A stretch of 64,000 bases of DNA from Cenococcum geophilum (taxonomy: Eukaryota): positions 2,914,001 to 2,978,000 of the forward strand of contig CP158635.1 in assembly GCA_050273025.1 (NCBI GenBank), written 5' to 3'. Each line of letters begins with the position of its first letter. Position 1 is the stretch's first letter. Both the position numbers and the translations under genes were made by a program. Of this stretch, positions 13,601-40,800 are shown in pieces. The notes below the pieces were generated by a model that did not search any database, was not told where the DNA came from, and saw only the letters and a list, made by a program, of their open reading frames with translations.

Positions 13601-16600
13601 TTTTACTGAATTAGGATAGACCCTGGGTCTAAGGATTTTACTATATTCTAGACCTATTACAGGACGTATAAATATAAGGTACTTCCTTTTAGACTAACTA
13701 ACGGACTAGCTACGTACCAGCGGTATATAAATAATGTACTCTTTAACTACCTTAACGACTTCTGTACGGCCTATCTAGATAATATTATAATCTACTTAGA
13801 AAATAAACTGGAATACAAGGAGCACGTCTATAAAGTCCTACAACGGCTCTATAAAGCTGGCCTTTAGGCCGATATTAAGAAGTTGGAATTTAGTATTAAG
13901 CGTATAAAGTACCTAGGTTTTATTATTAGTATAGACGGAATTAAGGCCGACCTAGAGAAAACAACCATAATTAACTAGTGGACGCCCCCATAGACCGTAA
14001 AAGGGGTGTAATTGTTTTTAGGTTTCTGTAACTTCTACTAACGCTTTATTAAGAACTATAGCAGGATCGCCTGGCCTCTTAACCGCCTTACTAGGAAAGA
14101 CCAGCCCTTTTACTTTAACGCTATGTGTATATAGGCCTTTAATAAGCTTAAAAAACGGCTAGTATCGGCCCCCCTACTTGCCCACTTTAACCCAGAATGG
14201 CCCTTAATGCTAGAAACTAATACCTTAGATAGCGTAATAGCCGGTGTTTTTTCCCAGAAGCAACCGGACAGAGAATAGCACCCTGTTATATACTATTTAA
14301 AGACTATAATAAATGCTAAACTGAACTACTATATCTATAATAAAGAAATGCTAGCTATTATCTCTAGCTTTTAGCACTGGCGTATACAGCTAGAGGGGAC
14401 CCCTAAACCTATTAAAGTAGTGTTAGATTATAAGGCCCTAGAATACTTTATAATAACTAAGGCCCTTATAGCCCGGTAGGCACGCTAGACGGATATCCTA
14501 TCTTAGTTTAACTTCTTAATTATATATAGACTAGGCGCTACGAACCGTACGGATGCTCTTACTAGGCGCGAATAAGACTTAAGTGACTATATAGCTGCGA
14601 AGATCTTATTACGGACCTAGACGCTACTATAACTAGAGCACCTTAACCCCCGGATATAGGTAGAACTAAGTATAGACTCCTTGGGCGCTAAGATGTATCC
14701 TATTAACCCTTTAGAACTTAACTTAATTAACGAATTACTGCAGATAAACCGTACGGCCCCTTCTCTATAGGAGTACCGTGAAAAGGCAAAGAACGTTACC
14801 AGCCTATGGTCCCTCAAAAATAGATTACTTAAGCATTAGGAACGGCTGGTAGTGGTAGAGGAATAGAACTTAAGGACTTGGCTTATTACTAAAGCATATA
14901 CCTAGGTCTCTACGGCTTACCCTAGAAAGAATAAGACCCGCAGGATTATTGGCAACCGCTACTACTGGCCTGGAATAGTTATAGATATCGACCGCTATAT
15001 ACGGAACTGCAACAACTGCTATAGGTCTATAATTCTACGAGATAAGACCCTAGGACTATTAAAACCCCTCCTAATACCCGACTGCCCCTAGTAATATATC
15101 TCTATAGACTTTTATAAGCTACCTCTAAACCGTAACGGATATAATATAGTTATAATCCTAGTTAACCGCTTTGGCAAGCGCCCGTTTTTAATTCCCTATT
15201 ATAAGAATATTGATGCTAAAGAGGCAGCCTAACTATATATCTACTACGTCTACTAAATTTACGGACTACTAGATACTATTGTATCTAACTACGGGCCGTA
15301 GTTTATATTAGCCTTTTAGAATAAGTTCACCCGGATCCTAGGCATTAAGCTAAAGCTTTCTACGGCATATCACCCAGACAGACGGTTAAACGGAAATTGT
15401 GAATTAATACTTGGACTAGAGACTCCGGCCTTTCGTTAACTACTTCTAGGATAACTAGGCCGAACTATTGCCCTTAATAGACTACGCCTAAGCGACCCTA
15501 CCCTACGACTCTACCGGATTTGCCCCTATTTAACTAGAAATGGGTTACCTACCCTATATAAGCTTTAACTGGGAAAGACTAAAAGGGCCCTAGACCGTAC
15601 GCGAAAAACTATCTTATGAGGAAGCTTAGCAGTACGCTAAGCGCTTAGAAGAAGCTTAGAAAGTAGCCTGTACGAACCTAGAAAAGGCCTAGAAATTAAT
15701 GGAATAGTAGGCAAATAAGTATAGGCGCGAGCCTGACTTTACTGTAGGCGATATGGTCTGGGTTATAATAAAGAACTAGAAGATAGAACGGCCTAGCCGT
15801 AAGCTGGACTATAAGATGGTAGGACCGTATAAGATTCTTAATAAAGTAGGTAACTTATATAAGGTTAAGCTCCCAGACTTAATTAAAGTCCACCCTATTT
15901 TCTTACCGGATAAGCTACGGAAAGCTATAAATAACCCACTACCTGGACAAAAGAATAAACCTCCCCTGTTAATTTAAGTTAATAACAATAATAAATGGGA
16001 AATTAAAGAAATACTGGCCTATAAACTTATAAAGGGAACGTTAAAGTATTGTATTAGTTGGAAAGGATATAACCTAGACCCCACTTAGTACCCTATATGG
16101 AACTTTATAGGTAGCCCCTATAAGCTTTAGAAGTTTTATAGCTATTACCCTAATAAACCCAGACCACTAAAGTACCTAAATAAGTGGATAGAATGCTGGT
16201 ATAATAAAGACGATAAGCTACTAGAAGAATATAAGGATAAAAACGCCCTAGAAATTTCTTAGTTACGTAAGGTGCTAAGATGTCTAGGAACTTTAACCGG
16301 TGGTTAAAGTTGTCTAATTAGTTAGATTCTCTTGCTAAGACTTTTAGCGGCAAAGCCTAAGGGTAGGCTTTTTTGGAGGGGGGGGTAATGTTACGGCACT
16401 AGTAGAACTTGGCAGAACTATGTACCGGTAAGTTGCCACAGATTGCCGTATATTGCGGTTATGTGACGCAAAGATCGTATATAGCTTCGAGCGGCGCTCC
16501 CCTTCTTCTCCTTTCCTTTCTTTAGCTTTAGATTCTCGTTTATAGACAATCCAATTGTACAGGCTTGCGCGACCCTTTTGCCGTGCTTATATCTCGATTG

Positions 16601-16615
16601 ACTAAGTCGCTAACA
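10639..16615 (+). mobile_element. Ty3/Gypsy chromovirus B nested in the chromodomain of A
   Basis: 227-bp LTRs at 10639-10865 and 16389-16615, TSD GATAG, and a G-rich PPT at about 16375-16385. Confidence 0.95.
10930..16260 (+). pseudogene. gag-pol of element B
   Basis: Gag remnant (AYVFGRTGGDAQ); [13 protein letters not shown]...[11 protein letters not shown] near 13395-13500; YLDNII near 13775; IYNKEMLAII; integrase; chromodomain about 15990-16140. Many RIP stops. Confidence 0.9.
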
Positions 16616-16749
16616 GATAGGCTATACTAAGACTACCTAGAAACTACTAGAGAATTTAAAAAATACTATAAAAAAGGTATAGGAGTATCGGAAGAAATTA
16701 GGTTAGGTAGCAGTAATAAAGAAGGATTACTAAAGAATAAGTTACCTAA

Positions 16750-17338
16750 GGGGGACCTAAGAAGAGCAGTTGCCGAACTACTTAGATCTATTTCCTTCTC
16801 TATTAGAAGAGAATCCGTTCTTTTATTACTAAGTTTATATAAACCTTATTTTATAAGTTTCTACTCCTTAAAATAGACCTTTTTACAAACCTTTTTAAGA
16901 TAGATTAACTAAGCGGACGCAATAAGACGAGATTTAAGAGCCCGTTGCTAAGTATTAGTAGCCTCCCGTTTTATATTATAGAAACGGCATAACTCCGCTA
17001 GAGTAATAGATAGTTTATTATCTAGCCGTATAGCAGCAGATTAAATATAAGACCTTAAGACAAATTAATTAGGGAACTAGATAACTATTAAGAGTAATAA
17101 GTTATATATATTTGGTATTAAAGATAAAGCGAATGTTATAGGACGAGCGAATATTTGCTTTAGTGCACTCTAAGTAAAAAGACGGTTATTGCGAAGATGG
17201 ACTCGCTAACATAATATAGGCTAATCCCTCTTTTAAACAGCAAGAATACGGAGATAGTATAATCTCACTAAGAGATAATATTATAGCTATAGTGCGAACA
17301 TAACGAGCAGTTAAAGATAAAGAAATTGCTTTAGGTAT
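16750..17338 (-). pseudogene. Antisense accessory ORF of element A with a Zn(II)2Cys6-like motif
   Basis: Minus strand reads (M)PKAISLSLTARYVRTIAIILSLSEIILSPYSCCLKEGLAYIMLASPSSQ*PSFYLECTKANIRSSYNIR. Reverting four Tyr codons to Cys (G>A RIP) gives C-x2-C-x6-C-x13-C-x2-C-x8-C. The 3' extent is uncertain. Confidence 0.55.
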
Positions 17339-17446
17339 AATAAGTAAAGATATTAACTAAATTAATTAGACGGATACTATACCTTTAGTAAATAACTTAG
17401 AGATACTAAGGATCTTTAAAGACAAAGATAAAGAGGAGGGAGATAG

Positions 17447-17870
17447 TGTTATGGACGCTTTAAGTATAATATTATAACTACTTAGAGAGGAGTCGGAAGA
17501 AGCTAGTTAGTTAATTTAGGCACGGTCTAGGATGGAGCCGATAGAACTATATAACGAGGAATGGTAACTAAGGTTATATAATGTAATCTATATAATCTAT
17601 ATAATCTATAAGATCTATAATAGAGCAGATAGAGCACACGTTTATTATATATAAGAAGGATTTTATAGGAGTACGGTTGTGTATTTAAGGACCCTTAGTC
17701 CCTACCTAGATAGTTCCTTCCTTATAGTAATTCTTAGAATATAATTAGAGTTAATTTATTAGGCAACCACTCCACTAGTTATTATTACGTTATTAACTTT
17801 AATTTACATTACCTATATACCTAGCCTATTAACGAGCCTATTGTAGTACTTGCTATAAGGTTCCGTTACA
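17447..17870 (+). repeat. 3' LTR of element A
   Basis: TGTTATGG...CCGTTACA followed by TSD CCTAA. Confidence 0.95.
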
Positions 17871-18055
17871 CCTAAACACCTAATAAGGTTAGTTTTTACA
17901 AAAAGGATAATAATATAAAAGGCGATATATAAGAGGATATAGTTTAGGCAGGTGTATAAAAAATATACCTTAACTACCTTAGGGACTTGGAAGGCTATGG
18001 TGAAGCTAAGATAAGTTTACTTAAGCTATAGTCGTTTACAGTCATTGACGAAATA

Positions 18056-18816
18056 TCATGAACTCGCTTAGAGCCGTATGTCGCGCATCGCCCACCCTAT
18101 AACTTTATTAATATAGCTTTATATTTTATAAATAGGGCCTTATTTTATAGCCCTCTATTAAAGCTATAAAACTAGCCCCTATTTATATAATTTAGAGCTA
18201 TATTGGTAGGACTATAAGGGGTAGAGCCGAACGTCGCGTATTATCCACCCTATTAAGACAATACACCCCCTATAACTTTACTAATATAGCTCCAATTTAT
18301 ATAAATAGTAGCTGATTTTATAGCTTTATTCTAGAGCTATAAAATAAGACTTTATTTTTAAAATATAAAGCTATATTAGTAAAGCTATAGGGGGTGTCTT
18401 TCTAGGGCTGCGGAAACTTAAATTGAGGCTTTACGCTAACTAATTTTAGCTACCCCACCCCAAAAACTAATACCCATAATACCCTCTATAGTCCTACTAA
18501 TATAGCTCTAATTTATATAAATAAGGGCTATAAAATAAGGCCCTATTTATAAAATATAAAGCTATATTAGTAAAGTTATAGGGGGTATATTGTCTTAATA
18601 AGGTGGATAATATGCGACGTTCGGCTCTACCCCTTATAGTCCTACTAATATAGCTCTAAATTATATAAATAGGGGCTAGTTTTATAGCTTTAATAGAGGG
18701 CTATAAAATAAGGCCCTATTTATATAATATAAAGCTATATTAGTAAAGTTATAGGGGGTGTATTGTTTTAATAGGGTGGGCGATGCGGCTCTTTCGCGTC
18801 CTAAGCGAGTTCACGA
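18056..18816. mobile_element. Foldback/MITE-like element with long internal inverted and subterminal repeats
   Basis: TA|TCATGAACTCGCTTAG ... CTAAGCGAGTTCACGA|TA; about 18095-18290 is mirrored at about 18560-18780. Confidence 0.8.
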
Positions 18817-18841
18817 TATAGTCGTTTTAATAATATCGGTA

Positions 18842-19325
18842 CTGTCGGTTGCAAAAGATAGGAAACTCGCTAAAGAGCCACGACGCGCGCATTTACCTTA
18901 CCATTAAAACAATATACCCCCTATAGCCCTACTAATATAGCTCCAATTTATATAAATAAAGGCTTATTTTATAGCTTTACTTTAAGGCTATAAAATAAAG
19001 TTTTATTGATATAATTTAAAGCCAAATTGGTAGAGCTATAGGGGGTGCTTTATAAAGGCTGTAAAACTCAGATTAAGGCTCTGCGCTAACTAATTTAGGC
19101 ACTCTCCCCCCAAAAACGAACACCCCCTATAGCTCTACCAATTTAGCTTCAAATTATATCAATAAAACTTTATTTTATAGCCTTAAAGTAGAGCTATAAA
19201 ATAAGCCTTTATTTATATAAATTGGAGCTATATTAGTAGGGCTATAGGGGGTATATTGTTTTGATGGTGGGGTGGATACGCGCGTCGTGGCTCTTAGCGA
19301 GTTTCCTATCTTTTATAACCGACAG
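18842..19325. mobile_element. Tc1/mariner-type MITE (almost wholly palindromic)
   Basis: TA|CTGTCGGTTGCAAAAGATAGGAAACTCGC ... GCGAGTTTCCTATCTTTTATAACCGACAG|TA. The TIR start resembles that of the Tc1 element at 19902. Confidence 0.9.
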
Positions 19326-19327
19326 TA

Positions 19328-19899
19328 CAGGGTCTAGGAGGTTCGGTATCCCCCCCCCCCGTGCGCGCAGCAGCGGTGGCATCTAATTTCGCTTGAGCTT
19401 CGCCTAAACTAGTATGTAGAGCTAGCAGGAAGGGGTATAGTACGTGGTTAGGGCTTAAATCACGGCTCTAAGCTCAATCTGAAGCTATTCTGAACTCCTC
19501 TCCGTCACCAAAAGTCGTGGTATTATAAAGCCTCTTTCTCCTATTAATATAAGCTCTAAACGCGGGCATATATATACATACCGGCGCCGGCTATAAGAAG
19601 GATTTAAATTAATGGCGTACTGCTAGTCACCCAATTTAGAGCTATATTAAGGAAGGCAACGGGGTAAAACACCAAGATCTAGAGGTGATATTACAACTTG
19701 GTAGGGGAGAGGAGTTTAGAATAGCTTCAAAATCGAGCTCAGAGCTCCGAATTCGAGGTGGGCCGTGGTTCAAGCCCTAACCACGTACTACACCCCTTCC
19801 TGCTAGCTCTACATACTAGTTTAGGCGAAGCTCAAGCGAAATTAGATGCCACCGCTGCTGCGCGCACGGGGGGGGGGACACCGAACCTCCCGGACCCTA
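19328..19899. mobile_element. MITE with about 140-bp or longer TIRs, TA-flanked
   Basis: CAGGGTCTAGGAGGTTCGGT...CACGGC is mirrored by GCCGTG...ACCGAACCTCCCGGACCCTA. Confidence 0.9.
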
Positions 19900-20017
19900 T
19901 ATTGTCGCTTGCAAAAGATCGGTAAAAATCGCCAAGCTAAAAGAGCCGTATTGCACCCCACCAAAATTCGTATAAGGGGTAATTCTTTTAATTTCAACTA
20001 CCACAATTAAGGTTAAT

Positions 20018-20976
20018 ATGGGTCGCCGCCTTCCTGATGAAGTTATTCATAGAATTAGGATTCGCATTAAAGCCAATCAGGATATAGCGACTATTGCGGC
20101 TGCAGTAAAGGTGGCCAAGAAGACGATTTACAAGATACAATTAAACCTTAATATTTGGGGCGAACTGTACGCGCCTCCTACTATAGTCTAAGGTCGACTA
20201 AGAGCTCTGCTACCTTACTAAGAAATGGTAATATATACAGTTATAGTGTTAAGCTTTTTACTTACTGTTTATGCAGCGCCTTTTTAACTTCCTTAAAGAT
20301 TAGCTAATAGCGTATTTAGATAAGATATAGACTTTCCTATTTAACGAATTTAATATTTAAGTCTCTACTGTAACTGTCTGCCGTACTCTTAAGAGAGCTT
20401 CCTAGTTATAAAAGGCGGTTACAGCTTAGGCGGCGTAAAGGAGCGCTCCCCTCTATAATGCCTAGATTAGTATATAAAAGAGCTAGGTAGTAGAGCAGCT
20501 TATATTTTTTAACAAGTTAGCAGTAAATAAAAGGACTAGTAATAGGAAGTACGGCTAGTTACTAGAAGGGACTATATATAGTATAGCACGCGTACTTAAA
20601 AGGTTAGAGAGGTAGAGTATTCTACTAGCGTTAGCAGTTAATAGATACCTTAGCTACCTTATCTTTTAAGGTTTATTACGTCTATAATATTTAAAGCCTT
20701 TATAGAGGAGTAGGTACTACCTTATTATATACTATATCTAGGGCCACAATTAGTCCTTATTCTTAACAACGCGGCAATTTATAAATTAATACGGCTTTAA
20801 GAGCTTTATAAGCAACACGGCGTCTTACTAAAATTCCTACTACTATACTTACCAGATTATAATCCTATTAAGGCTATATTTAATAACGTTAAGGCTTAGA
20901 TTTAAAGGAACTAGCGGCTAGTTAAGGACTTTAAGAGCTTTAAGAGCTTCTTACATTTTACTGTTAGTTAAGTATA
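20018..20976 (+). pseudogene. Tc1/IS630-family DDE transposase
   Basis: MGRRLPDEVIHRIRIRIKANQDIATIAAAVKV (HTH); intron about 20228-20277; LIFFNK (DE), VLILNNAAIYK (DNA..H), LLLYLPDYNPIK (PYSPDYNPIE). Confidence 0.85.
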
Positions 20977-23900
20977 TATCACGGAACCCTACCGCAGGGG
21001 CCTCTATAGGAGAGCCCCGTGCTCTCGCGTATACCTCGCGTACAGCTTATATCAGCTACGCGTAGGTATATCACCTCCTTACGCCCTTAACCCTTACGAT
21101 CGATCGCGCAACGTCTTGTAGACTCCTCGAATACATACGCTTTGTAGCCACTGCCCCCGTCCCATAACATTACGTTACGCCTTTTTTACCACTAACGCTT
21201 AGCCTACGACCAATTCTACGTCTTTGTAATACTACAGGCGCTGCCAAAAGCAGCATATCTACGAATTACCTCACTTTATACTTCTAAGGAACCTATAATA
21301 GTAAAACAATATCCCTTACTAGCTATTATATTAAACCTAAAGAATAATCTAATACCTATACCTAACCTACAACGCTAATTAATCCCAGGAGAATTTAATT
21401 TATTAGCCCTAGCCTTAACCCCTAAGGAGACGGACACTAATAATATCTTATCTTTTATTAACTATATAACTACGAACAAGTAAACGGAAGGGCTACTACC
21501 TATTAAAATCAAAATACGAGACGCCGAGACGTTTATAAAAATGGTAGCATAAGACCCTAATAAATACTACCGCCTTCTATAGAACTATTACCTAAAGCTT
21601 ATACGAGCCAAGATACATACTGCTTAAGATTACGATATTATCCAAGACCTATAAGCTTGTAAGGCGCTCGCCGATAATACATATTAAGAAACTAAAGACG
21701 ACCTTTGCGTGTCTGAACGCGACGTCTAATAGTTAAAAAAGGCTAAGATTGTACTAATTGCTACGGTTACTAAAAAAGAAGGTATAATTAAATACCTATA
21801 ATCTTAGCTTAATAAGCATATTCGTAACAACGCTAGATACCTCTCTACTATATATAACGCCACCTAAGTCTCTACGCCCCTAGTAACTTTACCTACTTAA
21901 CGCTTAACGGAGGGCTAGCGCTAAGCAGCTTTACCTAATAAAAACCCCTACTAAAGTAGCGATAATAAAAGCTATAATAATCGGACCTAAACTGCTACCG
22001 TAGGGTCTAATATACGCTACCCTAATCCCCTAGTCTTTTAGGGAGACCGTAAGGAATATAGCTACTAAAAGATGCAAATCCATAAGAAACTAACTTAGAG
22101 TGCCTACCTTTTTCCTACAGAAGACACTAAAATCGGCTATATTATTGGGCGAATAAAGGGTACACCATTTAATAGACTCTTCGCCCGATGGGAGACTAGT
22201 GGCCCCTAAAAGTAGTAGTCCTACTAAGAAGTCCTTAACAATCTCGACCTAATATACTGTAACTATAACCTACTGGCCACCAACTAAGCTAAACTACGTG
22301 CCCTAAAGATAAGCCCTACTAAATTATTCGATAAATTCTATATTAAATTCTAAGAATACACCGAAGCCCTCGCCTAAGACGATACTAAAAACCAGAAGGA
22401 CCTCCTTAAAAAAGTTACTTATCGCCTTAGTTACGCAGCCGCCAGCCACAACTATAACAATATTTATAATATGGTAGCAGCTCTATAGAAGATTAAACGA
22501 CAACTAAATTAGATTACTACTACTAACCCTTACCTAAAGACCTCCCTATAGAAGCCCCCCGGGCCTACTAAACCTATATATATTAAGCCACTAACGCCTA
22601 CTACCTTAAGTACTACCGGAACTAATATTAATTTCTCTATATTAACCTTCTCATAGAAACTCCTAGATGGAGAGCGCGAGCTACTCTAGAAACTAGGACG
22701 CTGCTATAAATGCCGTTAAGAAGGCTGTTATCGCAATAACCTAAACTACCTAATGGCTAGGTTTAGTAGCTACCGCCTAATACTTAACCTAATACCCCAA
22801 ACACTAAATACGTTGCTACGCGCCACTACTATATAAGATAAAGACGTAGTAATAGCGGTAGAGTCGGATACGGAAACGGAAAACGCTAAGTCCTAGCCCT
22901 AAGTTATAGGTTGGGATGCCCTAATAACGGAGGGATCTATATATCGGCTTGCTTAATAGATAACTCTATAAAAATAAATAGACGGAAATAGATAGTTTTA
23001 CCTATAATAGGAACTACTACTAAAAAATAATATAAAAGCCGTTCTATAATTAATTACGGAGCTACTAATAAATTTATAGATACCTAATTCGTGCGCACTT
23101 ATAACCTACCTACCTTACCCCTTACTAAAGCCCGCGCCCTATAACTCGCTAACGGTAATTATACCGCATAGAAGATTACCTATATGGTATAACTCTACCT
23201 AGATATAAATAGGCACTAGGAAGAACTCTGGGCCTATATAACACTACTTACTAACTACCCTATTATCCTTAGAATAAACTAGCTCGAATAATATAACCCC
23301 GCTATTAACTAGAAGAAAAAAGAAGTAACCTTTAACTCTAAATACTGTAGAGAGACTTGCCTAGGGCATAGCCTAGCCACCTCTATTTACTCCCTAGGAT
23401 ATCAACCTAAGGAACCCCTTATTACCCCACCTATAACTAACTGCTACTATATAAGTGCCCCGGCCTTCTACTATATAGCATATAAGAAAGGCTAGACCGT
23501 TACTATAGCTTCCTAATTACAACTATATAAGCTTAATAAAGAATAGGACTACGTCCTCTATAGCAATAGGATAGACATAGTTGACCTTTTAGAAGACAAC
23601 GCCCCTACGGAACTCTACAGACTTTTACCTTTAGACTTTAAGAAGTTTATAAAGCTTAAAAAAGGACTTACCAACGAAGAACTCCGCAAGCTCCTCCTTA
23701 AGAGGTACTATAACTTTACCGATATGTGCTTATAAAAGAGTGTAGATACACTCCCCCTATATTAACCTAATAACTATACTATTAATATTAAATAAGGAAA
23801 AATGCTACCTTATAAGAGACCCTACCTAATATTAAAAGACGAGCTTCTAGTTATAAAAAAGTATATTAACAAGCACCTTAATAAAGGATTTATTCGTCCT

Positions 23901-26900
23901 AGCATATTACCAGCAGCCGCCCCTATCCTTCTCGCTAAGAAGCTAGGAGGAGGTATCTAATTCTATATTAACTATAGAGGACTTAACGCTATTACGATTA
24001 AAAACTAATACCTAGTACCGCTTATATATAAGACCCTTAAGCGGCTTAGTTAAGCTAAAATCTATACTAAGCTTGATATTATTGCCGCCTTTAACTATCT
24101 CTAAATACGGGAAGGTAACAAATAGAAAACCGTATTCGCATCGCGCTTCGGCCAATTTAAATATACCGTTATGCCCTTTAGGGTATATAACGGCCTAGGT
24201 ACCTTTTAAAGCTACATTAATAACGCCTTACGGGACTACCTTAACGACTTCTACTCTGCGTACCTGGACGACATACTTATTTATAGCGATAACTCCTCTA
24301 AGTATACTAAACACGTTTAAAAGGTTCTACAGCGCCTTAGGGACGTAGGACTTTATATTAATTTAAAGAAATGCGAATTCTTAGTTATAGAAGTAAAATA
24401 CCTTAAACTAATTATTACTACTAAGGGTGTCTATATAGACCCCAAGAAGGTATATATAATTACTAAATAGTAAGCCCCTAACTGCATTAAGGACGTATAA
24501 GCCTTTCTTAGTTTCGCCAACTTCTATCAGAAATTCATATATAACTTCTTAGGCGTAGTAGCACTACTTATAGCAATAATACGAACGAAGGGCCTTTCTA
24601 TAAAAGGAAGAAAAACGCACCTACGCTTTACCTAGACGCCTAAATGCGAGAAGGCGTTCTAAGACCTTAAAAATGCCTTTACTAAAGCATTTATCTTAGC
24701 TTACTTTACACCAGGATAATAACTCTACCTTAAAACTAACTCCTTAGACCACGTTAATGTAGGCGTCCTTTCTTAGATAGGTAATAACGGTCTCCTTTAC
24801 CCAGTCGCATTTTACTCGTCTAAGCTTATACTATAAGAGTGTAACTATAAGATCTATAATAAAGAACTCCTTATAATTATATAAGCGTTTAAAGAATTCC
24901 AACTAGAACTCTCCTTAGTAGAGCCTAACTAGCCAACTAAAGTCCTTACGGACTATTATAATCTTAAGTACTTTATAACTATAAAGTAGCTAAACTAACG
25001 CCAAGCACGTTAGAACGAGTTCCTCTCTAGTTTTAACTTTAAAATTATATATAGACTAGGAGTATAAGGTACTAAACCTAATAGCCTAATACGCCGCTCG
25101 TAAGACCTTCCTTAGTTTAAAAATAACCCCTGTAATTAGTTCCAATAACAGACAATCCTAAAAGCACGAAATTTGGCCTTAGGTATACTACCTACAATAG
25201 AGCTAACTATACCCTAGCTTTATACTATAGAACTAAAGTTACCTTCTAAAATTAATAAGCTTATTATTACGGTATATAACGCCTCTATTAACCTATTACT
25301 ATATTAACTTATTACCGCAAAGACCGCTAGCGCCCATACGCTGCCTACTAACCTCTAAAGCTTAGGCCAAATTAATATAGTAGCCTTAGAAGTAAAAGAG
25401 AACAGGCTCTATTATAGAGGCCGCCTATTTATCCCTAACTTAGAAAATCTATAACAGCAACTAATCTAAATAGCCTACGACCTCCGATTAAGCGGCCATC
25501 TAGGTAGAAAAGGAACCTATAAGCTTCTTAGCCGATACTACTTCTGGCCAAAAATAATAGACTTAGTTAAACGCTTTATAGGCGCCTGCTATAGTTATAA
25601 GCGCGCTAAGGCCTTTAATATAAAGTACTAAGGACTACTATACCCTCTACTAGTACCTATATAACGATGGGTAGATATCGCTATAGATTTTATTGTTGAC
25701 CTATTACCCTGTAAATGACACGGCCGTACCTATAAGAACATCCTTATAATAATATACCGACTTATAAAAGAGCGCCACTACGTCCCAACTAAAGGCGTAG
25801 CCGTTAGCGACGTTACTAACGCCTTCCGCGAAGTCTACTAACTATATAGGCTACCTAACTTAATTACGTCCGACTGAGGTATATAATTTAACTCTAATAT
25901 ATAGAGACGAATCTACTAACGCCTTAGCATCTCTGTTAAGATGTCTATATCCTTCTACTATAAAACTACTGGGTAACTAGAAAACGCTAATACTAGTATA
26001 AAAGCGTACCTATGACAGGTAGTCGCCTATAATTAAGATGACTGGGTAGATTACCTCCTACTAGGTAAATTCGCAGCGAATAACTACGTCTTAACCACTA
26101 CAGGACTTACCCCGTTCTTCGTGAATAAGGGTTATTACCCCTAATCCGGCATAGAGCCACCAGAACCTATTAATAAGAAACTGCTATATAGAAAACGCTT
26201 TAAGATGCTACTTACCGACCAGTATATAGACTATATAAAAAATCTACTCAACTACTGCAAGGGAGAAATGGCCTAGGCTTAAGCAAAGTAGGCCTACTTC
26301 GCTAACCGTTATAAAACGCTACCACTGGAGATGCGTGTTGGCGACTAGGTATAGCTAGATATACGTAATATCTCTATGCAGAGGCCTATAAAGTCACTCG
26401 ATTATAAGAACCTTAGCCCCTATTTAATTAAACAAGTTATTAATAGGGGAGCCGTATATAAGCTAGAACTCCTACTTACCCTAGCTACCCGCGGGATATA
26501 GCCCATATTTTACCTATAGCTACTATACCTCTATTAGCCTAACCCCTTACCAGGGCAGATATAGCTTAAACCCCTACTAGTACTAATCCGAGATAAGAAT
26601 AAAGACAAAAACTATAAGAAGTGGACCGTTAAACGAATTATTAACTCTAAATACTTTAGTAAAGGCAGAGGACGATGGCTCTACTACAGAGCTATATATA
26701 CAGGATTCGACATAGATTAGCCAGAATGGCAACTATAGGAAGACTTTAAAAATGCAAAGGATCTAATTAGCGACTTTTACTACGCGAACCTATAGAAACT
26801 AGGCCTAAGTAGAGACTTTATACCTAATCCTCTATAGGAGCCCTTATAGAGTTAAACCGTTATATATTACCACGTAAGGGTAAATTGCCGTTAGATTGCC

Positions 26901-27337
26901 GTTAGATTGCGGTAAAGTGCGATTACGTAACTGGAATATCGTTAAGATGTCTAGGAACTTTAACCGGCGGTTAAAGTTATCTAATTAGTCGGATTCTTAG
27001 ATGCCAAGCCCTATTATATAACGTTGTTTTAAGCCTTTAGCAATACCCCCCTTTTTCTTCTTTTCTATACCTTAAGTGTCTCTTCTATATATATATAGTA
27101 ACCATAACGTCGCCAGAGCTCCGCCTCTATAAGAGGGGGGGTAGTATTACGGAACCCTACCGCAGGGGCCTCTATAGGAGAGCCCTGTGCTCTCGCGTAT
27201 ACCTCGCGTACAGCTTATATCAGCTACGCGTAGGTATATCACCTCCTTACGCCCTCGACCCTTACGATTGATCGCGCAACGTCTTGTAGACTCCTCGAAT
27301 ACATACGCTTTGTAGCCACTACCCCCGTCCCATAACA
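20977..27337 (+). mobile_element. Ty3/Gypsy chromovirus C nested in the Tc1 transposase
   Basis: 193-bp LTRs at 20977-21169 and 27145-27337, TSD GTATA, PPT AAGAGGGGGGG; RT KGFIRPS near 23885; AYLDDILIYS near 24260; integrase and chromodomain to about 26830. Confidence 0.95.
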
Positions 27338-27968
27338 GTATATCCCTTTATATAGTAACCGTTTCTTGCACTTTTTGTATATGCACGCCTATAAGCCTAT
27401 CTAGAGGCTTTATACCGTATATAGCTTAGCGTTAAAGCCTCTGGTTAGTGCGGTTACTCGGCGTTAGGGGTGCTGGCGCCTTATTAACACTTAGTAAACA
27501 GCAGCGAAGTGGCTAGGAAGCCTATATAATATTTGGTGTAGTTAATTAAAAAGCTTTAATATTATCGCCGTCTATTTAATCCTTAAATTATTAGCAAAAT
27601 GTTGTCCTTATGCAGCCTGGCAGTAATTTAGTGGACTTTAATAGAAGATTTTCCTATATAATCAGCAGCTGGTTAATAGAAGAAGGGTAGAAATCTACAG
27701 ACATGGCGTTATATATTACGACTTCTTGCTTAACTTCCTCAAATATATATTGGTGTTTTTAGTGGTAGCCTTCTATAATATTTTGTCGGCATCGCAATAT
27801 CGACGTATTTTAGTGGGGATTGCTAATAAAATCGCGCTAGCTAGGGTGCCTATAGCATTCTAACCCAAACAAAAGCGCCAAAGGCGCCTAATACGAAAAG
27901 TGACTTTTGCCGCACGAAGGGATGGTATATACGCAAGAGCCCACTTCTAAGAGGTAGGATATATTATA

Positions 27969-28470: not shown

Positions 28471-28489
28471 TAGGGTAATAGATAAATAC

Positions 28490-30181: not shown

Positions 30182-31961
30182 AGGGTACGCCCGCTTAGCC
30201 GCACGGCCCGCCCACTCGCACACACGAACACCAAAATATCACCAATTTTAACAATTAATTACTCCACCAAAATAGGTGATATTTTGGCGCTATAAAATAT
30301 ACTGGCTGATTTATATCTTTAAAAACATTTTAATATATCTAAGATAGCCTAAAAACACAATGTTAAGTAGTTAAAGTTGTCAAAACACTGGCGTGGCATT
30401 TAGGCGTTAATAAAAGAGTATTATAAATCTTAAGACTATATAACCAACAAATAGGTTTAAAGCTTTATAAATTATATAAATCTATTTCTAAATTAAAGGA
30501 TTCCTCCTATACCATTAATAGTTAAATATTTTATTAAGAATATTACTAAAATTAATGTTAAAAAGAACTATATAAAAGTTATAATATTTAGTAAAATTAG
30601 TTTTAAAATTATAAACCTAAACAGTAGCCTACTCTTTTTATTATTTTAAAATATAAGTAAACTAATAATAAAATTGATTATAAATGGTTTTTTATAATTT
30701 TTAACAACTATATTAAATATAAAGCTAGCTTAAATTAAAAATAAGGGCTTTTAACCTATAATAGCTATAACTTTTATTTAAATATAAAAGTCCTTAACTA
30801 ATATTATATAAATAAATTTTTTATAGCCATATTTTCTCTCTATAGTATATATAGACTTTAGTCTTTTAATATTTTAATACTTTTTACTACTAGTAAAGTA
30901 TTATAGCTATAAATTGAATTATTATATAATATATAGCTAATAGTTTATTTTATAGGTAAACAATATTTTTAAAAGGTTTTTAGGCTATATAGAATTCAGC
31001 CTTTATATTAAATAATATTATTAATAAATAAAAAGATTAAAATTTATTTATTTAATTTTAATATTATTTTAGGCTGTTTTTTAAAGTATATATATAAGGA
31101 GTCTTTATTATTTAAAAGCCTATTAAAAATTATTTTATTACTTTAGCCTAATAATAGGATTAGTATATAAAACTTATTAAATACTATAATAATAAAAATA
31201 ATAATAAAAAAGAACTTTAGCTATATTTAACTTTTTAAAATATATAAATTAAGAATAAACTTTTTATAAAAAAAAATAATATACTTAAATTAGCTTTTTA
31301 TAATAAAAATAATAAATAAATAAAAAATATAGGCCTTTTTAATAAGTTATATAATATTAGAGAGCGTAATTTTTAATTTTTAAACTTTATTAAAGTGTAG
31401 TAAGTAAAAGACTTAAAAACTAAGTATAAATAAACTAAAATAGACAAATAATATGCCATTAGAAAGAGGAATATTTAATAAATAATATATTAAAAAATTG
31501 GCTCTATATAGACGCAGAAAAAAAAGTTATTTAATTTATTACTTAAGTATATTAAGCTGTAGAAAAAGTAGTAAAGAAAGCTAAATAATAATAAGTAAAA
31601 GAGGATTATAAAATAGTCTAGTAGCTTATTAAGAGGCTAAAGTAGCTAAAAGGATACTTAGGAAAAAGAATAATAAGGTGTTTAATAAGGAAGTTTAATT
31701 AATTAAGATAGTAGAGGTAAAAGAGGCTGCTACTATACCTCCCCCTTAGGGTACACAAAACAAGGGAAATAAGTCTACTATAGAGGTTTAAGGATTATAA
31801 GCTTTAACTAGCTAGATTCGCAGCTCCTTAAAGCCTTATATACTAGAATTATATAAGTGGTAGGTTTTGTGTGTCGCGGGTAGCCTCAATTTTGCTAAAG
31901 TGGTGATGCTTGATTTGGCCTGTGCGACTGGGCGGGCTGTGCGGCTAAGCGGGCCAACCCT
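30182..31961 (+). mobile_element. Fot1/pogo-type DNA transposon, extremely RIP-degraded
   Basis: 41-bp TIRs AGGGTACGCCCGCTTAGCCGCACGGCCCGCCC and GGGCGGGCTGTGCGGCTAAGCGGGCCAACCCT with TA flanks; 1.78 kb; remnant of the HSTHRLQPLD motif near 30840-30875. Confidence 0.8.
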
Positions 31962-31963
31962 TA

Positions 31964-32183
31964 ACTCGCTTAGAGCCGAACGTCACGCGTTACCCACCCT
32001 CTCAAAACTACATACCCCCTATAACTTTACCAATATACCTTTATATTTTATAGATAGGGCCTTATTTTATAGCCCTTTACTAGGCCTATAAAAGAAGCCC
32101 TTATTTATATAAACTAGAGCTATATTAGTAGGACTATTGGGGGTATTATAAGGTACTAGTTTTTGGGGCGGGGTAGCTAAAAT
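31964..32183. mobile_element. Partial copy of the 18056-18816 foldback family (its TIR begins at 18836, before the transposon train)
   Basis: ACTCGCTTAGAGCCG...CCCACCC...CCCCCTATAACTTTACCAATAT matches 18062 onward. Confidence 0.75.
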
Positions 32184-32185
32184 TA

Positions 32186-32300
32186 ACGTGGGGGATCAGC
32201 TTGTGCACGCGACCGGCTCGTGCACGGTTTTCCCCACCAAAATCTGGCAAAATACACCTTTTTACACCACCTATAATTTAATAACTATAACAGCTATTAA
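32186..32300 (+). mobile_element. Isolated Fot1-like left end
   Basis: TA|ACGTGGGGGATCAGC...CCACCAAAAT. ACGT terminus after TA; no partner end found. Confidence 0.45.
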
Positions 32301-32349: not shown

Positions 32350-35300
32350 AAGCTTTAACTTAGAGCCTTATATATAGAGTTTAATTAATATATTAATATA
32401 TATATAGATATAAGGTTTTCCAGGGGGAGACCCCCTGGACCCCCCCTCTGTAGAGCTTTTACTTAATTTAAAAGTAGTAGTAAGGCTAAGGCGCCTTAGT
32501 TACTACTAAGTAATATTATCTTACTAAGAGGATCTATTACAGTAACAGAGTTTAATTAATATCTATATATATATATAAGGCTTTCTAGGGGGAGACTCCC
32601 TAGACTTCCCCTTATAGAGCTTTTAGAAGTAGTAGTAAAGCTAAGGCGCCTTAGTTACTGCTAGGTAGTATTATCTTATTAAAAGGATCTACTATAGTAA
32701 CTAAGGTGCCCTACTTAAGTTAGGCTTAATTTAGAAGTAATATATATATACCTCCATCGTATTATATTGCGGGGGCTATGTAACGTGGCCCGCCTCCACG
32801 TCGCCATACGGCCAAAAAGACTGAGAGTGCTTGCGAACTTGTCGTAAGCGTGGCGGGATCCAATATATGTACTCTTACAGGCTACTTTATAATAAGGGGT
32901 AAGCTTTAGATAGAGGCTTATATAGAGCTTTAATAGAGGCTTATATAGAGTAGTAATAGAGGCTTATATAGAGCTTTAGTAGAGGCTTATATAGAGCTTT
33001 ATATAGAGCTACGTGCAGAGCTATATACAGAGCTACGTTTAGAGCTACGTGTAGGTGTGTAGGCGTGTAGACGTATAGACGTGCAGACGTTTATACTGGC
33101 GATTAATTATAGAGACGCCTGTAGAGATAGTTGTATGGGCAATTATATAATAATAATAATTCATTGCTTAATATCCGATTTGGATCCCTATTAGGCCTAC
33201 GCGGACTACTCCTTATATACATATAGGGAGAAAACTCTATTAGGCAATTATATAGACGTTTAATTAATCGTTTATACGGGCGTTTATATAGGCAATTAAT
33301 TAATTAATTAATTATATGGACGTTTATAGAGCTATACGTAGAGCCATTTATATAGGCGTTTAATTGATTAACTGTATGGGTATTTAATTAATTAATTATA
33401 TAAGAGTTCGTATAGGCACTTGTATAGGCGTTTGTATAGGCGATTATATAGACATTTATAGAGCCGTTTATAGAGCCTTCCTAGTATATTAGTAGAGCTT
33501 TAGAGCTCTATATTAAGCTTTAAGTAGAGCTTTAAGTAGAGCTTTAAGCTTAAGGGGGAGATCCCCTTAGACCCTCCCTATACACTACGTGCTATATATA
33601 CTATATAGGCAGAGGTCTTATAGAGGCTTTAGTAAAGCTTCTATAGAGCTTTATATAGAGCTTCTATAGAGCTATATATAGGTATACAGACGTTTATACG
33701 GGCAATTAATTGTAGAGATATTTATAGAGGCGATTGTATAGGCAATTATATAGACGTTTAATTATTTATTTATATAGGCGTTCGTATAGGCGTTTGTATA
33801 GGTAATCGTGCAGACGTTTATAGAGCCGTTTGTAGAGCCGTTTATAGAGCCGTTTGTAAAGACAATTATATAGCGATTAATTATATAGACGTTTATATGG
33901 CCAATTGTAGAACCTTCCTAGTATATTAGTACTGCGTATTAGTAGAGCTCTAAGTAGAACTTTAAGCTTAAGGGGGAGACTTCCTTAGACCCCCCCTGCG
34001 TACTATATGCTCTATTTACTATATAGGCAGAGCTCTTATAGAGGCTTTAATAGAGCTTTTAATAGAGATTTATATGGAGCTTTATACGGAGCTTTTATAG
34101 AGCTTAGTATAGAGCTTTAATTAACCTAAATTTTTAATTTAAAGCCTTATAATATAGAGTTTAATTAGTATATATATAGACATAAGGTTTTTTTTAAAGA
34201 AAACCCTCCCTAAACCCCCCCTCTATATATTAGGAGCAGTAGTAAGGTTATTTAATTAAAAAGATTTATTATAATAACTAAAGCATGATATTTAAATTAG
34301 GCTTAATTTAAAGTAATATATAAAATTTTATATATATAAGTAATATTTCTACCTTTAAAAAAAACTTAAGCTTAAGGGGGAGACCCCCTTAGATACCCCC
34401 TACGCACTATATGCTTTATTTACTACGTGGGCAAAGCTCTTATAGAGGTTTTAGTAGAGCGTTTAGTAGAGCGTTTGGTAGAGCTTTATATGGAGGTTTA
34501 TATGGAGCTTTTGTAGAGCTTTTGCAGAGCTCTATATAGAGCCCGGTAGAGCTTCGTATAGAACTTTATATAGAGCTTTAGTAGAGCTTTATGCAGAGCT
34601 TTGGTAGAACTACGTATAGAGCTTCAGTAGAGCTTCGTGTAGAGCTTTAGTAGAGCTTTATATAGAGCTTTAGTAGAGCTTTATGCAGAGCCTTATATAG
34701 AGCCATATATAGGCGTTTACATAGGCGATTAACTGCAGAGACGCTTATAGAGACAATTGTATAGATAATTGCATAGACGTTTAATTAATCGTTTATATGG
34801 GTGTTCGTATAGGTAATTAATTGATTAATTGATTGATTATATAGGCGTTTATACGGGTAATCGTGTAGATATTTATAGAGCTATTTATAAAGCTATTCGT
34901 GTAGATAATTATAGAGCCTTCCTAGTATATTAGTGCTGCGCGTTAGTAGAGCTCTAGAGCTCCGTATTAAGCTTTAAGTAGGGTTTTAAGTAGATCTTTA
35001 AGCTCAAGGGGGAGACCCCCTTAGACCCCCCCTGCGTACTACGTGCTCTATTTACCGCGTGGGCACAGCTCTTATAGAGGCTTTAGTAGAGTGTTTAGTA
35101 AAGCTTTTATAAAGCTTTTATAGAGCTTTTATAGAGCTTTTTGTAGAGCTTTAGTAGAGCTTTTTGTAGAGCTTTGGTAGAGCTTTGGTAGAGCTTTAGT
35201 AGAGCTTCGTGTAGAGCCTTATACGGAGCCATATACAGGCGTTTACACGAGCGATTCGTATAGGCGATTGATCGTTTGTAGAGACGTTTATATGGACGAT

Positions 35301-37085
35301 TATATAGGCAATTATAGAGCCGTTATAGAGCCGTTTGTAAAGACGTTCGTAAAGATAATTATAAGACTTCCTTATATATTAGTGCTGCGTTTTAGTAGAG
35401 TTTTGGAGCTCTATATTAAGCTTTAAGTAGAGCTTTAAGCAGCTTAAGGGGGAGACCCCCTTGGACCCCCCCTACGCACTATATGCTTTATTTACTATAT
35501 AGGCAGAGCTCTTATAGAGGCTTTAGTAGAGACTTTAGTAGAGACTTTAGTAGAGGCTTTAGTAAGGCTTTTGTAGACCTTTGTGTAAAGCTTTATATAG
35601 AGCCTTACGTAGAGCTTCGTATAGGACTTCTATAGAGCTACGTATAGGCGTGCAGGGTATAGACGCTTGGAAGGGTGATTAATTATAGAGACGTTTATAG
35701 AGATAATTATATGGGTAATTGTATAGACGTTTAATTGATCAATCGTATGGGCATTTGTACGGCTAATTATATAATCTTCCTAGTATATTAGTGCTGCGTG
35801 TTAGTAGAGCTTTAGAGCTCCGTATTAAGCTTTAAGTGGAGCTCCGAGTAAAACTTTAAGCTTTAAGTGGAGCTCCGAGTAAAACTTTGAGCTTTAAGTG
35901 GAGCTCCGAGTAAAACTTTGAGCTTTAAGTAGAGCTCCGAGTAAAACTTTGAGCTTAAGGGGGAGACCCCATTGGACCCCCCCTGCGCACTACGTGCTCT
36001 ATTTACTGCGTAGGTAGAGCTCTTGTAGAGGTTTTAGTAGAGGCACCAGTAGAGCTTTTAGTAGAGCTTTTGCAGAGCTTCGTACGGAGGTTTGTGCAGA
36101 GCTTTTGTAGAGCTTCGTACGGAGGTTCGTGCAGAGCTTTTGTAGAGCTTTAGTAGAGCTCCATGCAGAGCTTTGATAGAGCCTTATGTAGAGCTTTGAT
36201 AGAGCTTGTATTTAGGCTTGTTTTTGAAGGCCTTATAAACGACTTTGTATAGAGCTTTGAGCAGAGCTTCGTATAGGCGTTCGTGCAGGCGTTCGTACAG
36301 GCGTTCGTGCAGGTGTTCGTGCAGGTGTTCGTGTAGGCGTTCGTGTAGGCGTTCGTTTAGGCATTCGTACAGACGTTTGTAGAGACAATCGTACAGACGT
36401 CCGTACGGACGATTGTATAGGCGATTGTAGACGCTCGTAGAGACATTTGTAGAGACGTTTGTAGAGACGTTTGTAGAGACGTTTGTAGAGACGTTTATAC
36501 GGGCGTCTGATTGATTGATTGTAGAGCCGACGTAGAGACGATCGTACGGGCGTTTGGTTGATTGATTGTATAAGCAATTGCAGAGACGTTCGTATGGGCA
36601 TTCGTATAGGCAATTGATCGATTGATCGATCGATTGTATGGGCGTTCGCACGGGCGATCGTGTAGACGTTTGTAGAGCCGTTTGTAGAGCCGTTTGTAGA
36701 GCTGTTTGTACGGACGATTGTACGGGCAATTGTAGAGCCGTCGTAGAGGTGTTTGTAGAGAGCGATTGTGAGACTTCCTAGTATATTAGTGCTGCGTGTT
36801 AGTAAAGCTTTGGAGCTCCGTATAGGGCTTCGAGCAGAGCTTCGAGCAGAGCTTCGAGCAGAGCTTCGAGCAGAGCTTCAAGGGGGAGACCCCTTTGGAC
36901 CCCCCTGCGCACTGCGTGCTCTGTTTTACTGCGTGGCCAGTACACTCGGTGGGTAGAGTGTTACAAAGCCATTGATAGAGCTTTTGGTAGAGCTTTTGTA
37001 GAGCTTTATACTAAGCTTTGTGCAGAGCTTTTGCAGAGCTTTTGCAGAGCTTTTGCAGAGCTTTTGCAGAGCTTTGGTGGAGCTC
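32350..37085. repeat. Higher-order satellite: about 400-900-bp units with AGAGCTT microarrays and a GGGGGAGACCCC..GGACCCCCC motif
   Basis: Motif at about 32423, 32588, 33554, 33972, 34376, 35008, 35448, 35959 and 36882. The block TTCCTAGTATATTAGTGCTGCG recurs in most units. Confidence 0.9.
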
Positions 37086-37818
37086 GATGTTTTGAAGTTC
37101 GTCACGTGGATTCTGCCATAGCTTACCGCGCGCACTTTTTTCTAACCAATCAGAAGCCAGCTCTCCAACCAATCAGAAGCAAGCTTGGCGGGGTTTGAAA
37201 TCCAGGACCCGAAAGTAATAGACCACTTGTAAACTCGGGTCAATAAAATCTAATATATAGCTTATTTAGTACTTAAATTATAATTTTATATAAAAATATT
37301 ATAAAATATTATAATAACTATATATTTAAAGTTAAGTTAAAAAGTACTTTTTTAATAAAATATAAAGTAGTTAATAAAGCTATTAATAAAGCTATTATAT
37401 ACCTATATTTTATAGATATAAATATATTTATTCTATAAATAATTGTTTTTAATATATAAGTAACCGGTTTAGCTATGCAATCAGTTTATATATAGTAATA
37501 AAAACTACTTAATAATAATAGTTTTAAAGACTTATAACTTAACTATTATAATAGTTATTAATATAAAAATTAAAATATAGCTTATTATATAATAAATAAA
37601 ATACAATATAATATAAAATTTGGAAAAAATCACTATTTATAATATAAAATAAAAAAATTCACTTTTATATATACTAGAATTGTATAATTATTGCAATAAA
37701 TATAATAATAACATTAATTATATTTTAAATACTTAATCTTACTTATTATAAAGTATTTTATGCATTAAATTTATTATATTAAAAACTTATTTATAGTATA
37801 AATATATAAGTTTAAATT

Positions 37819-40800
37819 TGTAAGGTGAGGATGTGGATAGGGAGTCCAATGATAGAATAATGGGTATATTGTATAGACAGAGACAAATCCTTAAGGGAAA
37901 AGGAGGAGTCTGTGTGCGAGGTAGGAAGGGTTTTCCCTAGGCACGTGCAGAGCACGTGCCTCACGGGCGAGTCACCCCTGGGTTGCCCCAGGGTCGCCCA
38001 TACCTTGCGGCTATATAACTATCTACTTAGGTTTTACCTAACAATGCCCCCCCCTTTAAAAAGGGTCGTCCCCGATCCTTTATATACTTAAGCCTCAATA
38101 AAACCCCATAAAAAACCTTAGTAAGGAAAAAATTTAGAGGGGAAAGAGCGTCTTAATTTTTGCATATAGAGAGACGGGTAGTATATATACACGGCGTAAA
38201 GATATTAAGGAACTTCGACTAGCGGTTAAAGTTGTCTAATTAGTCAGATTTGCCTTACTAAGACTCCCCCGCATTTAACTAAGCCAGTAGCGATTTTATA
38301 TGCCCGGTATAGAAAATCCTAATTAGTCCATTTAATAGGTAGAGCTAGTGGAGCTTAATACCGTCGCCTGAATTTGGTAGACCAGAAATATTCCAAAAGC
38401 TCGCTTGCGTAGGCAGGTCGCTAGTACCTCGCGGGTTAGTCATAGGTTATTTACATACAGCCAGATTTATAGACGGTAAGGCTATATACCTATTAAACCC
38501 GCCGCTGACCCTGCTTTAGCCTTACGCTATACCGGTATAGCGCCGTATATACTTCGCGGGTAGGTTTATAGGTTACTTATATATAGCCAGGTTTAGGACG
38601 GCAAGGCTATATACCCGTTAAATCTGCCGCTAACCCATGCTTTGGCCTTGTGTGTTATCTACGTAGTATATACGTAGAATAGTATAAGTTGTTAGTATAG
38701 GTTACCACCAGCGGGTTACCAGTAGGTTATAGACCCCAGTTAAATAGACCCCGGTTATAAACGGGCGTAGGATATTAATAAATTAAAACTTCACCCCGTA
38801 TATACGCCGCAGTTCTCATAGCAGTCGTTACTTATTCTTTAATCCCTTGGGACGTCCTCTGCTCCGCTTTAATGCAGGTTATATTTTAACAGCAGCGCTT
38901 ACTTTTCGCCTGCGCTTTAGCTATAAGGCTAGGGTGTTCCGCTTGCGGTACTTATCTAGCAGTTATTAACAATTCTTAAGTTCTGTCTCGTATTTTTATT
39001 TATTGTACTTATTTAGCCATCCTAGCCATTTAATAAGGTACTATAGTTATCTAGCACGATCCTAATGGGCGATAATTACTTCTACTTCCCAGCTGCCTTC
39101 CTTGAGCTCTTCCACTGCTAGGGGTTAAAACCCAGGGCGTGACCTATAAGGCTCTAGTAGGGAGATATAAAAGACTAGGTAGAGCCGTGCTATAGTAGGT
39201 AGAAGCTCTAGCTTATATACTTACTACCCTACGCGCTCTAGGATCTAAAACGGTCCTATAAACTTGTAGTTAAGCTTTTTATAAGGACGTTTCGTGCGGA
39301 TGTTCTTGGAGGAAAGCAGGACTCATTCACCGACGGCAAAATGCTTGGCTAGATAGTAACGATTGTAATATTTTACCTAAAGCTTTTAGGCGTATATTAT
39401 CGACGCCGCCGCTACCTTACGTGTAAGGCGTAGGCGTTATAGGTGCGTCTCTGCGAGTTAGATATTTGTCAACTTAGACCCCTCCCCACCTTACTGGGCG
39501 TCTTAGACGCTGTCCAGGACTCTATCCAGGACGTTTAGTAGCTAGCTATAGGCGAGCTTAATAGGGGAACGCTTTATTGTGGTATAGACCTTAGAGTTAT
39601 AGGTAAAGGCTACTTCTTTAAATAGGGAGGCCCAATTAAACTGTTCCCAGTTTATAAATATACGTAGGTATACCTTAAGCTCCTAGTTCTAGCGCTCCGT
39701 CTGCCCATCTATCTACGGGTAAAATGTAGTACTAAGTTTACGTTAAACGCGGAGATAGTAGCACATAGTACTTTAGTACTCGCTTATAAATACACTACCC
39801 CTATTAGAGACAATATTATCTAAAGGCCCTATTTATGCAAAGACTCTAAATAAGAGTTCTGCGAGTTGCGTAGCATTAATTGTCTTACGCACTAGATAGT
39901 AGCGCACTAGCTTTATAAAACGGTCTATAAGGACAAGGACGGAGTTATACTCTACGCCATCAGGAGTCTTAGACTCTGGGAGATCCGTAATAAAGTTAAG
40001 TAAATAATGCCGCTAGGCTTAGGTAGGGGCCTAGAAAGGCTGCAGCTTACCATAGGGTTTATAGCGGCGCGATTTAGAGCGTTAGTAGGTATTATAATTA
40101 TCTAGGTATTTGCGGAGGTCCTAGGTAAGGCCATTCCAAGCGTACTTCCGCGCGATTACCTTAAAGGTACGGTTAAAACCATAGTGGCCGCCTATAGAAT
40201 CGTTATGATTTCGCTTAAGGATCTCCTGTTATAGTAGTATGCAATTCAGCACCTAAACCTTATTATTTTACCTTAGGAGTCCTTAATTATTAAGGGTGTA
40301 ATCCTTATTACCGGCGGGAACTCGTTTCTAGGTTAACTAATCACATATAAAGCGTATAAAGGCGTCCCTTTTTTATACTCTATAAATAAAATTAACTAGT
40401 AACTTAGGGGGTTATTCCGTAAACGCCGTTTCGGCTAAAGCAGCTACTACTACTTCTTGCTATGGCACGAGACTCTACGCAAAGTCGGTGCCAGCAAAGT
40501 AATATATAATGCGCAGGTAACTCGCTAGGTCGTCGCGGGGGACCATAACCTAGGCTAAGGGGTCTTCCCTAGGGTTAAGCGCTATTAGGCTAGTCGAAGT
40601 GGTCTTAAAGAGAATAGTAGGACGCTTTGGTCCGCCGGCGCTAAGTTTATAAAGGTTACTCATATACTACACGTATACTACTTACTAATATAGTATAGTA
40701 GCACCAGGGCCACCCACAAGGCCTATAACCCGCAACTTTTACTATAATATAGGCAGCATAGCATTAAGGAGTATCCTCTTACTGCTATCTTTAAAGCCTT

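Follow-up and report, generated by a model that had tools for sequence, protein, structure and literature searches.

The described systems closest to the element reported here are the RM boxes of Sireviruses, the CHS of GalEa elements and the promoter or enhancer in the U3 region of long terminal repeats (LTRs). RM boxes are palindromic, non-coding sequences with CGG/CCG cores that lie in the LTR upstream of TATA and after pol ahead of an extra open reading frame (ORF); they number 8–32 per element, differ between families, belong to one plant genus of Copia elements and have been proposed as regulatory (Bousios et al. 2010, PMC2829016). The GalEa CHS is a short, hairpin-forming, non-coding block that takes the place of the primer site immediately behind the 5' LTR, starts CTGATCAGT and has an extended form common to families within one species (PMC5445492, in the accessible part of its text). 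Here we describe a 52-bp module, a palindrome beside a CCAAT box, that occurs three times in a 64,000-nt stretch of the Cenococcum geophilum genome (the window; GenBank assembly GCA_050273025.1, contig CP158635.1, positions 2,914,001 to 2,978,000 of the forward strand), each time in the 3' untranslated region (UTR) of a different Gypsy retrotransposon, here called B, C and D. From sequence comparison, we read it with a probability of roughly 0.55 as a DNA-level promoter or enhancer module that passes between families of retrotransposons and is maintained by selection.

The closest analogue of the module is the Sirevirus RM box. The RM half-site CGGTC/GACCG of Osr10, Osr8 and Vitis elements also occurs in the module, and its core, CGACCG-N-CGGTCG, is a palindrome of the RM type whose half-sites follow the reverse order from those of the RMs listed in PMC2829016. 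In copy number and clade, however, the two part ways: the module is present as one near-identical copy per 3' UTR or per LTR, its hosts are fungal Gypsy as well as Copia elements, it is tied to a CCAAT box, it occurs in both orientations and it is patchy among close kin. Identity with the GalEa CHS was rejected, as the module is found behind pol or within an LTR and not after the 5' LTR. The pairing of CHSeq1 (CTGATCAGT/CTAATTAGT) with CHSeq2, which includes an A/A mismatch, does not fit either: unmutated copies of the module read GTCTGATTGGTCAG and form a different, perfect stem, and the copies that read CTAATTAGT are CHS look-alikes produced by repeat-induced point mutation (RIP). One carrier, family E, has a CHS-like site of its own at the 5' LTR, separate from its module some 5.3 kb away after pol. 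We found no description of the module in the literature searched, which did not extend to supplements, so the extended-CHS file of PMC5445492 or libraries of transposable elements could hold the sequence unremarked; the part of the main text of PMC12910237 that was covered has no occurrence of palindrom, CCAAT, hairpin, enhancer or solo.

All three 52-mers read alike on the plus strand between the end of pol and the 3' LTR (Table 1), at the positions given in a preliminary description of this DNA. B and C agree at 48 of the 52 positions, and D agrees with each of them at 43; nearly all differences are RIP transitions, and when transitions are counted as matches the agreement rises to 52/52 for B and C and 51/52 for D with either. 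The next-best site for the 52-mer in the window reaches only 31–32/52. The three carriers are distant from one another. Their C-terminal pol sequences are 29, 29 and 27% identical, and the only parts that blastn can align between them are the module and a coding piece of 56 nt. Pfam SH3_Tf2-1 matches the pol ends of B, C and D (E = 9e-12, 0.05 and 2e-16, respectively), and Chromo matches D; the ends of the elements resemble chromodomains.

The module is abundant in the genome that holds the window (G000; 178 Mb in seven contigs, strongly affected by RIP-type mutation). The core, sought with two disjoint patterns that tolerate RIP, matched 1,789 times (centre base G) and 931 times (centre C or T), which sum to at least 2,720 copies; as the reversed controls gave 0 matches each, chance does not account for the module. 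Sorting sampled loci (designated by L-numbers) by their flanks yielded the families B, C, Cx, D, D-like, E, E2, E3, F, G, H, H2, I, K and M. In a tree of pol ends, carriers fall into five Gypsy lineages about 25–35% apart (B/H, C, D, F and I) and are interspersed with non-carriers; of the 23 candidate rows, the tree retains 17, because F_L098, Cx, two D-like, CCx and G had no tblastn match, and it is unrooted and has long branches that meet. G is a further Gypsy-like element that carries the module. K is a Copia element by its Pfam matches (RVT_2 at 1e-47, rve and gag). Pfam gave no match on family E or family M, whose labels rest on domain layout judged by eye; for E, this Copia-like layout together with the CHS-like word after the 5' LTR points to a GalEa-type Copia. 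The carriers thus appear to comprise, at a minimum, five lineages of Gypsy and two families of Copia. Beyond the Gypsy 3' UTRs, the module is also the core of one Copia LTR and part of the 3' UTR of a second, probable Copia. At L099 (1500–3000), a module fragment with a C-type flank adjoins the end of a Mutator-like transposase (by eye), which is probably a case of nesting.

Outside this genome, the module was sought in viral, prokaryotic and metagenomic collections. IMG/VR gave no match to a strict pattern, and 185,579 prokaryote genomes gave none. Metagenomes held at least 124 matching stretches; among those listed, 116 belong to families of G000 and eight to an unrelated element that lacks the CCAAT block. 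Within these collections, which include none of fungal genomes, nothing places the module beyond one fungal lineage. The unrelated repeat (L223, L237, L241, L246, L266, L297, L302 and L317) starts AGGGCCCGTTTCACC, often after TT or TA; the RIP-like form of the palindrome is its natural one, and it is probably the end of a DNA transposon of another organism.

Little-mutated copies and genome-wide counts revise the anatomy of the module. Over 114 loci, none has C at module position 39 or 43; 80 matches in the genome keep TCTGATT or TTTGATT, versus three with TCCAATT, none of which has C at 43; and natural unmutated copies were found at L127 and L255. On these grounds, the CCAAT box lies on the minus strand as GACCAATCAG, and not on the plus strand as CCAATCAG, the form that the preliminary description had reached by reversing RIP and that needs C at both positions. 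The 10-bp stem with a 3-nt loop proposed there also gives way, to 11-bp arms around a single variable base (AACTTCGACCG-N-CGGTCGAAGTT): the outer 'loop' bases are broken in only 3 + 3 matches, versus at least 2,720 that keep them, and the centre may be G, C, A or T. The observation that D carries the module the opposite way round to B and C is correct, but because the box had been read on the wrong strand the labels change places, D being 'sense' in promoter terms and B and C 'antisense'. The flanking words survive: little-mutated natural copies have TCACGTGA upstream and GCCAAG downstream, and GCCAAG is kept in 12 of 15 family representatives with a spacer of 3–7 nt.

The module is far better conserved than its surroundings. 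Pairwise transversions among the 15 representatives stand at 0.012–0.061 in the arms, a range biased low by the arm-constraining patterns with which most copies were found, and at 0.013 in the CCAAT block, compared with 0.53 at the centre and 0.48–0.50 in the flanks. Since most of the compared copies came from patterns that fix the arms, we took an arm-free search as the fair check; its pattern gives a sample and not an enrichment (375 matches for the reversed control), and 49 of its 57 matches are palindromic with transitions only, three are family M and five are background. In family M, the left arm is broken, and the right arm and CCAAT box are intact.

Several observations suggest that the module has moved between families. 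Gypsy B and Copia E2 share a contiguous block of 100 bp (31 + 52 + 17 bp) that begins in the last pol codons. D and F, with pol sequences 28% identical, share both the module and a second palindrome flanked by twin CCAAT boxes, in opposite directions relative to the elements. Across family pairs, 48 of 66 share less than 10 nt upstream and less than 12 nt downstream of the module, so that the joints are sharp. Presence is also patchy: among the top 30 SH3 loci, the module lies within about 1.5 kb in 22 of the 23 members of D's cluster and in none of the seven members of three other clusters. A local inversion within D's lineage was considered and rejected, as the closest relatives of D in the sample (39%) are without the module and F, which has it, is as distant as noted above. 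The module is also absent from element N, which shares 87% identity with H and 73% with B; its site is occupied there by 19 different bases. N is young, with a 1,404-amino-acid open frame and LTRs 98.7% alike at L359 and LTRs 99.6% alike at L366. The module has thus undergone gains and losses, and transposition in the lineage of this intact relative does not require it. The two N copies (L359, 3526–9449; L366, 416–6312, G000:C7) escaped most RIP. The second palindrome, twin inverted CCAAT boxes around GATTTTC..GAAAATC, follows the first module, turned either way relative to it, in D, E, E2, E3, F, I and Cx (L357, L129, L216 and L207); an initial placement of it within family E's LTR was wrong, as that LTR starts some 350 bp further on.

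The same joints are what a hitch-hiking recombination hot spot would leave, an explanation that we consider unlikely but the strongest of the rivals. Here the palindrome would fold in single-stranded RNA or cDNA, stall reverse transcriptase and promote template switches, so that a piece of LTR spreads and is homogenised without benefit to its carriers. The sharp mosaic boundaries fit this, as do the coexistence of G and C centres within nine families (353 distinct copies), the absence of the module from N and from three of the four Gypsy clusters, and what seems to be a relic joint of polypurine tract and LTR behind the module in E2. Passive copying does not, however, predict that GCCAAG and the E-box should persist, with differences in distance and side, as the spacers change, nor that family M should retain a half-site and CCAAT without the palindrome. 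A DNA-level cis element exchanged between lineages, one of the options raised in the preliminary description, fits the sequence data; nothing speaks for its alternative of a self-mobile cassette, no terminal repeats or target duplication having been seen around the module.

One pointer to function comes from the Copia family K. The module lies inside both 182-bp LTRs of a full K element and in K solo LTRs with 5-bp target duplications (L127 and L119); K is the only family in which it belongs to the LTR, the modules of B, C and D lying outside. In the 180-bp LTR of L127, an E-box at 27 is followed by CTTGGC at 56, CCAAT at 72, the palindrome at 82–104, TATATAG at 127 and the LTR end at 180, with the module 22 bp ahead of the TATA-like word and CCAAT in the sense direction; the direction of the LTR was set by the polypurine run that precedes it and the primer-site-like word that follows. 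This order of E-box, CCAAT, dyad and TATA matches the layout of a U3 promoter, in which LTRs have CCAAT and TATA boxes. Most other carriers depart from that system, as their module lies outside the LTR, after pol, and is mostly directed back into it. In the Gypsy-like G, including the unmutated L255, the module lies about 255 bp ahead of the ATG of an extra ORF and in the same direction, and in family M (L401–L405) it precedes a gag-like frame (by eye). The extra ORF of G (L155 and L255) is long, follows integrase and the module and belongs to no known family; a protein atlas gave no match to it at 0.9 or more. Family G has two 77%-identical units in tandem, 5.4 kb apart, and L255 also has an apparent hAT dimerisation fragment (by eye).

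We therefore favour a compact RNA polymerase II promoter or upstream-activating module of which the 52-mer would be the core. A CCAAT box for the CCAAT-binding complex (CBC) would stand beside a 23-bp dyad for a dimeric factor, with GCCAAG and often an E-box at loose spacing. In K the module would act in place as a promoter, and after pol in the other families as an accessory element whose target may be the nearby LTR or a downstream ORF, unless it serves as an antisense promoter. Movement between families could proceed by template switching in co-packaged RNAs or by DNA recombination, and host factors bound at the module may raise or protect transcription of the carrier, so that the module is kept while remaining dispensable for transposition. 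GCCARG is the site of PacC. The CBC, PacC and basic helix-loop-helix assignments are motif matches and mark candidate sites. CCAATCA in the module fits the CBC consensus CCAATVR, and the bipartite CBC:HapX site (CSAAT-N12-RWT) was rejected, as the bases 12 nt after CCAAT are ACC (consensus sequences from the part of PMC7144946 available). In Aspergillus, TCACGTGAT/TCACGTGATC and CCAAT footprints drove reporters (in the portion of PMC8419926 covered).

Several points weigh against the promoter reading. The CCAAT box of most carriers (B, C, E, F, H and I) is directed into pol, with no TATA seen at K's spacing; that of D faces the 3' LTR. The mixed G and C centres suggest that the arms physically pair, with repeated flips or conversion, and recent exchange alone could yield high identity among copies. 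The arm divergence and the arm-free sample carry the biases given above, and we know of no factor for the dyad. RNA data are neutral: four runs gave 21 reads on L364, a near-intact Gypsy carrier of family H and not a K element, all of them partial and without a start site, which speaks neither for nor against a promoter. The few of these reads that covered the module continued as K-type LTR sequence. Contigs from the RNA libraries cover the L364 element but may derive from DNA, and the four runs came from a set with small word shares; in two RNA-library runs, loose contig ends match the family M setting.

A signal acting as RNA or single-stranded DNA is quite improbable. Its 10-bp stem would act in the RNA or cDNA of the element, in packaging, dimerisation or export or in the priming of the plus strand close to the polypurine tract, and RNAfold indeed gives a perfect stem on both strands of unmutated copies, the hairpin reads alike in both orientations and in B, C and D the module stands 60–155 bp ahead of the 3' LTR. 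Yet the 49 palindromic arm-free matches hold no compensatory change besides RIP artefacts: RIP alters both arms symmetrically (TTCGAC/GTCGAA to TTTAAC/GTTAAA) and mimics covariation, so a covariation test (R-scape) is misleading on RIPed copies. The outer loop bases keep their complementarity, which a DNA dyad would require, if over few independent events; non-palindromic flanks are kept in both orientations; and N transposed recently without the module. Rfam covariance models, applied with E values up to 10 to the window and to four loci whose copies are little mutated, gave no match to the module, and nothing there points to a ribozyme or another Rfam family; a likeness to a Pol III B-box or a tRNA origin was loose and by eye, and Rfam gave no tRNA match.

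Least probable of all is a chromatin boundary or anti-silencing site, at which the same bound factors would hold a patch free of nucleosomes and so screen the element or its LTR from heterochromatin without activating a start site: orientation independence, a position at the element's 3' edge and the presence of CCAAT and E-box words among open-chromatin footprints of Aspergillus (in the portion of PMC8419926 covered) are in its favour, but most copies are heavily RIP-mutated and hence were not protected from RIP, and the layout of K is that of an ordinary promoter.

Sharing of such a block across superfamilies is unusual. If the module is functional, regulatory DNA moves between Copia and Gypsy elements independently of genes and places unrelated families under one host signal, and its copies, some of them unmutated in solo LTRs within gene-like, little-RIPed DNA, represent ready-made promoters for host genes. 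A broader proposal, which we hold as doubtful, is that both superfamilies draw on a common pool of portable regulatory modules: a single host-factor platform, formed by the CCAAT complex and the dyad factor, would be swapped between Copia and Gypsy and would co-activate its carriers or shield them from silencing. Such a platform, if real, would help to explain why many families burst together in a genome subject to RIP. The dyad offers concrete bait for a fungal DNA-binding protein, and the natural pair of N, without the module, and H or B, with it, makes its function directly testable.

Table 1. Module copies, their parts and carrier elements in the window (positions counted from its first nucleotide)
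Feature	Position	Strand	Remarks
Module copy, 3' UTR of Gypsy B	16277..16328	+	60 bp ahead of 3' LTR; CCAAT box directed back into pol
B palindrome, 23 bp, odd	16289..16311		11-bp arms, 1-nt centre; RIP-mutated
B CCAAT box position	16317..16321	-	RIP-mutated; unmutated copies read GACCAATCAG
B E-box	16263..16270		RIP-mutated; less mutated copies read TCACGTGA; inside the 100-bp block common with GalEa-type Copia (probable) E2
B GCCAAG word	16334..16339	+	Reads GCTAAG at this site
Gypsy element B, LTR to LTR	10639..16615	+	5-bp target duplication GATAG; LTRs about 10639-10865 and 16389-16615
Module copy, 3' UTR of Gypsy C	26944..26995	+	About 150 bp ahead of 3' LTR; CCAAT box directed back into pol
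C palindrome, 23 bp, odd	26956..26978		
C CCAAT box position	26984..26988	-	RIP-mutated
C E-box	26923..26930		RIP-mutated; less mutated copies read ATCACGTGAC
C GCCAAG word	27003..27008	+	
Gypsy element C, LTR to LTR	20977..27340	+	5-bp target duplication GTATA; LTRs 20977-21172 and 27145-27340
Module copy, 3' UTR of minus-strand Gypsy D	38199..38250	+	About 155 bp ahead of 3' LTR; CCAAT box directed at that LTR
D palindrome, 23 bp, odd	38211..38233		
D CCAAT box position	38239..38243	-	RIP-mutated
D GCCAAG word position	38257..38262	+	Reads ACTAAG at this site
D second common module	38281..38328		Two inverted CCAAT boxes around GATTTTC..GAAAATC palindrome
Gypsy element D (chromovirus-type), LTR to LTR	37811..44591	-	LTRs 37811-38043 and 44360-44591

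Other repeats share the window with these elements. A fourth Gypsy pol (7900–10500; 36% identical to N in reverse transcriptase) has no module copy within the window, and its end is the insertion site of B. A cluster of nested inverted repeats, about 130–230 bp long, lies at 18060–19300, with further copies at 31960–32190; the repeats may be transposon ends or resemble miniature inverted-repeat transposable elements. A tandem array of a 17-bp unit, in about 25 or more copies, occupies 49892–50554. Long arrays of a 12-bp unit (AGAGCTTTATAT-like) extend over 1–1700, 5500–6200 and 32880–37060, and similar arrays elsewhere in the genome (L364 and L369) form long open frames.

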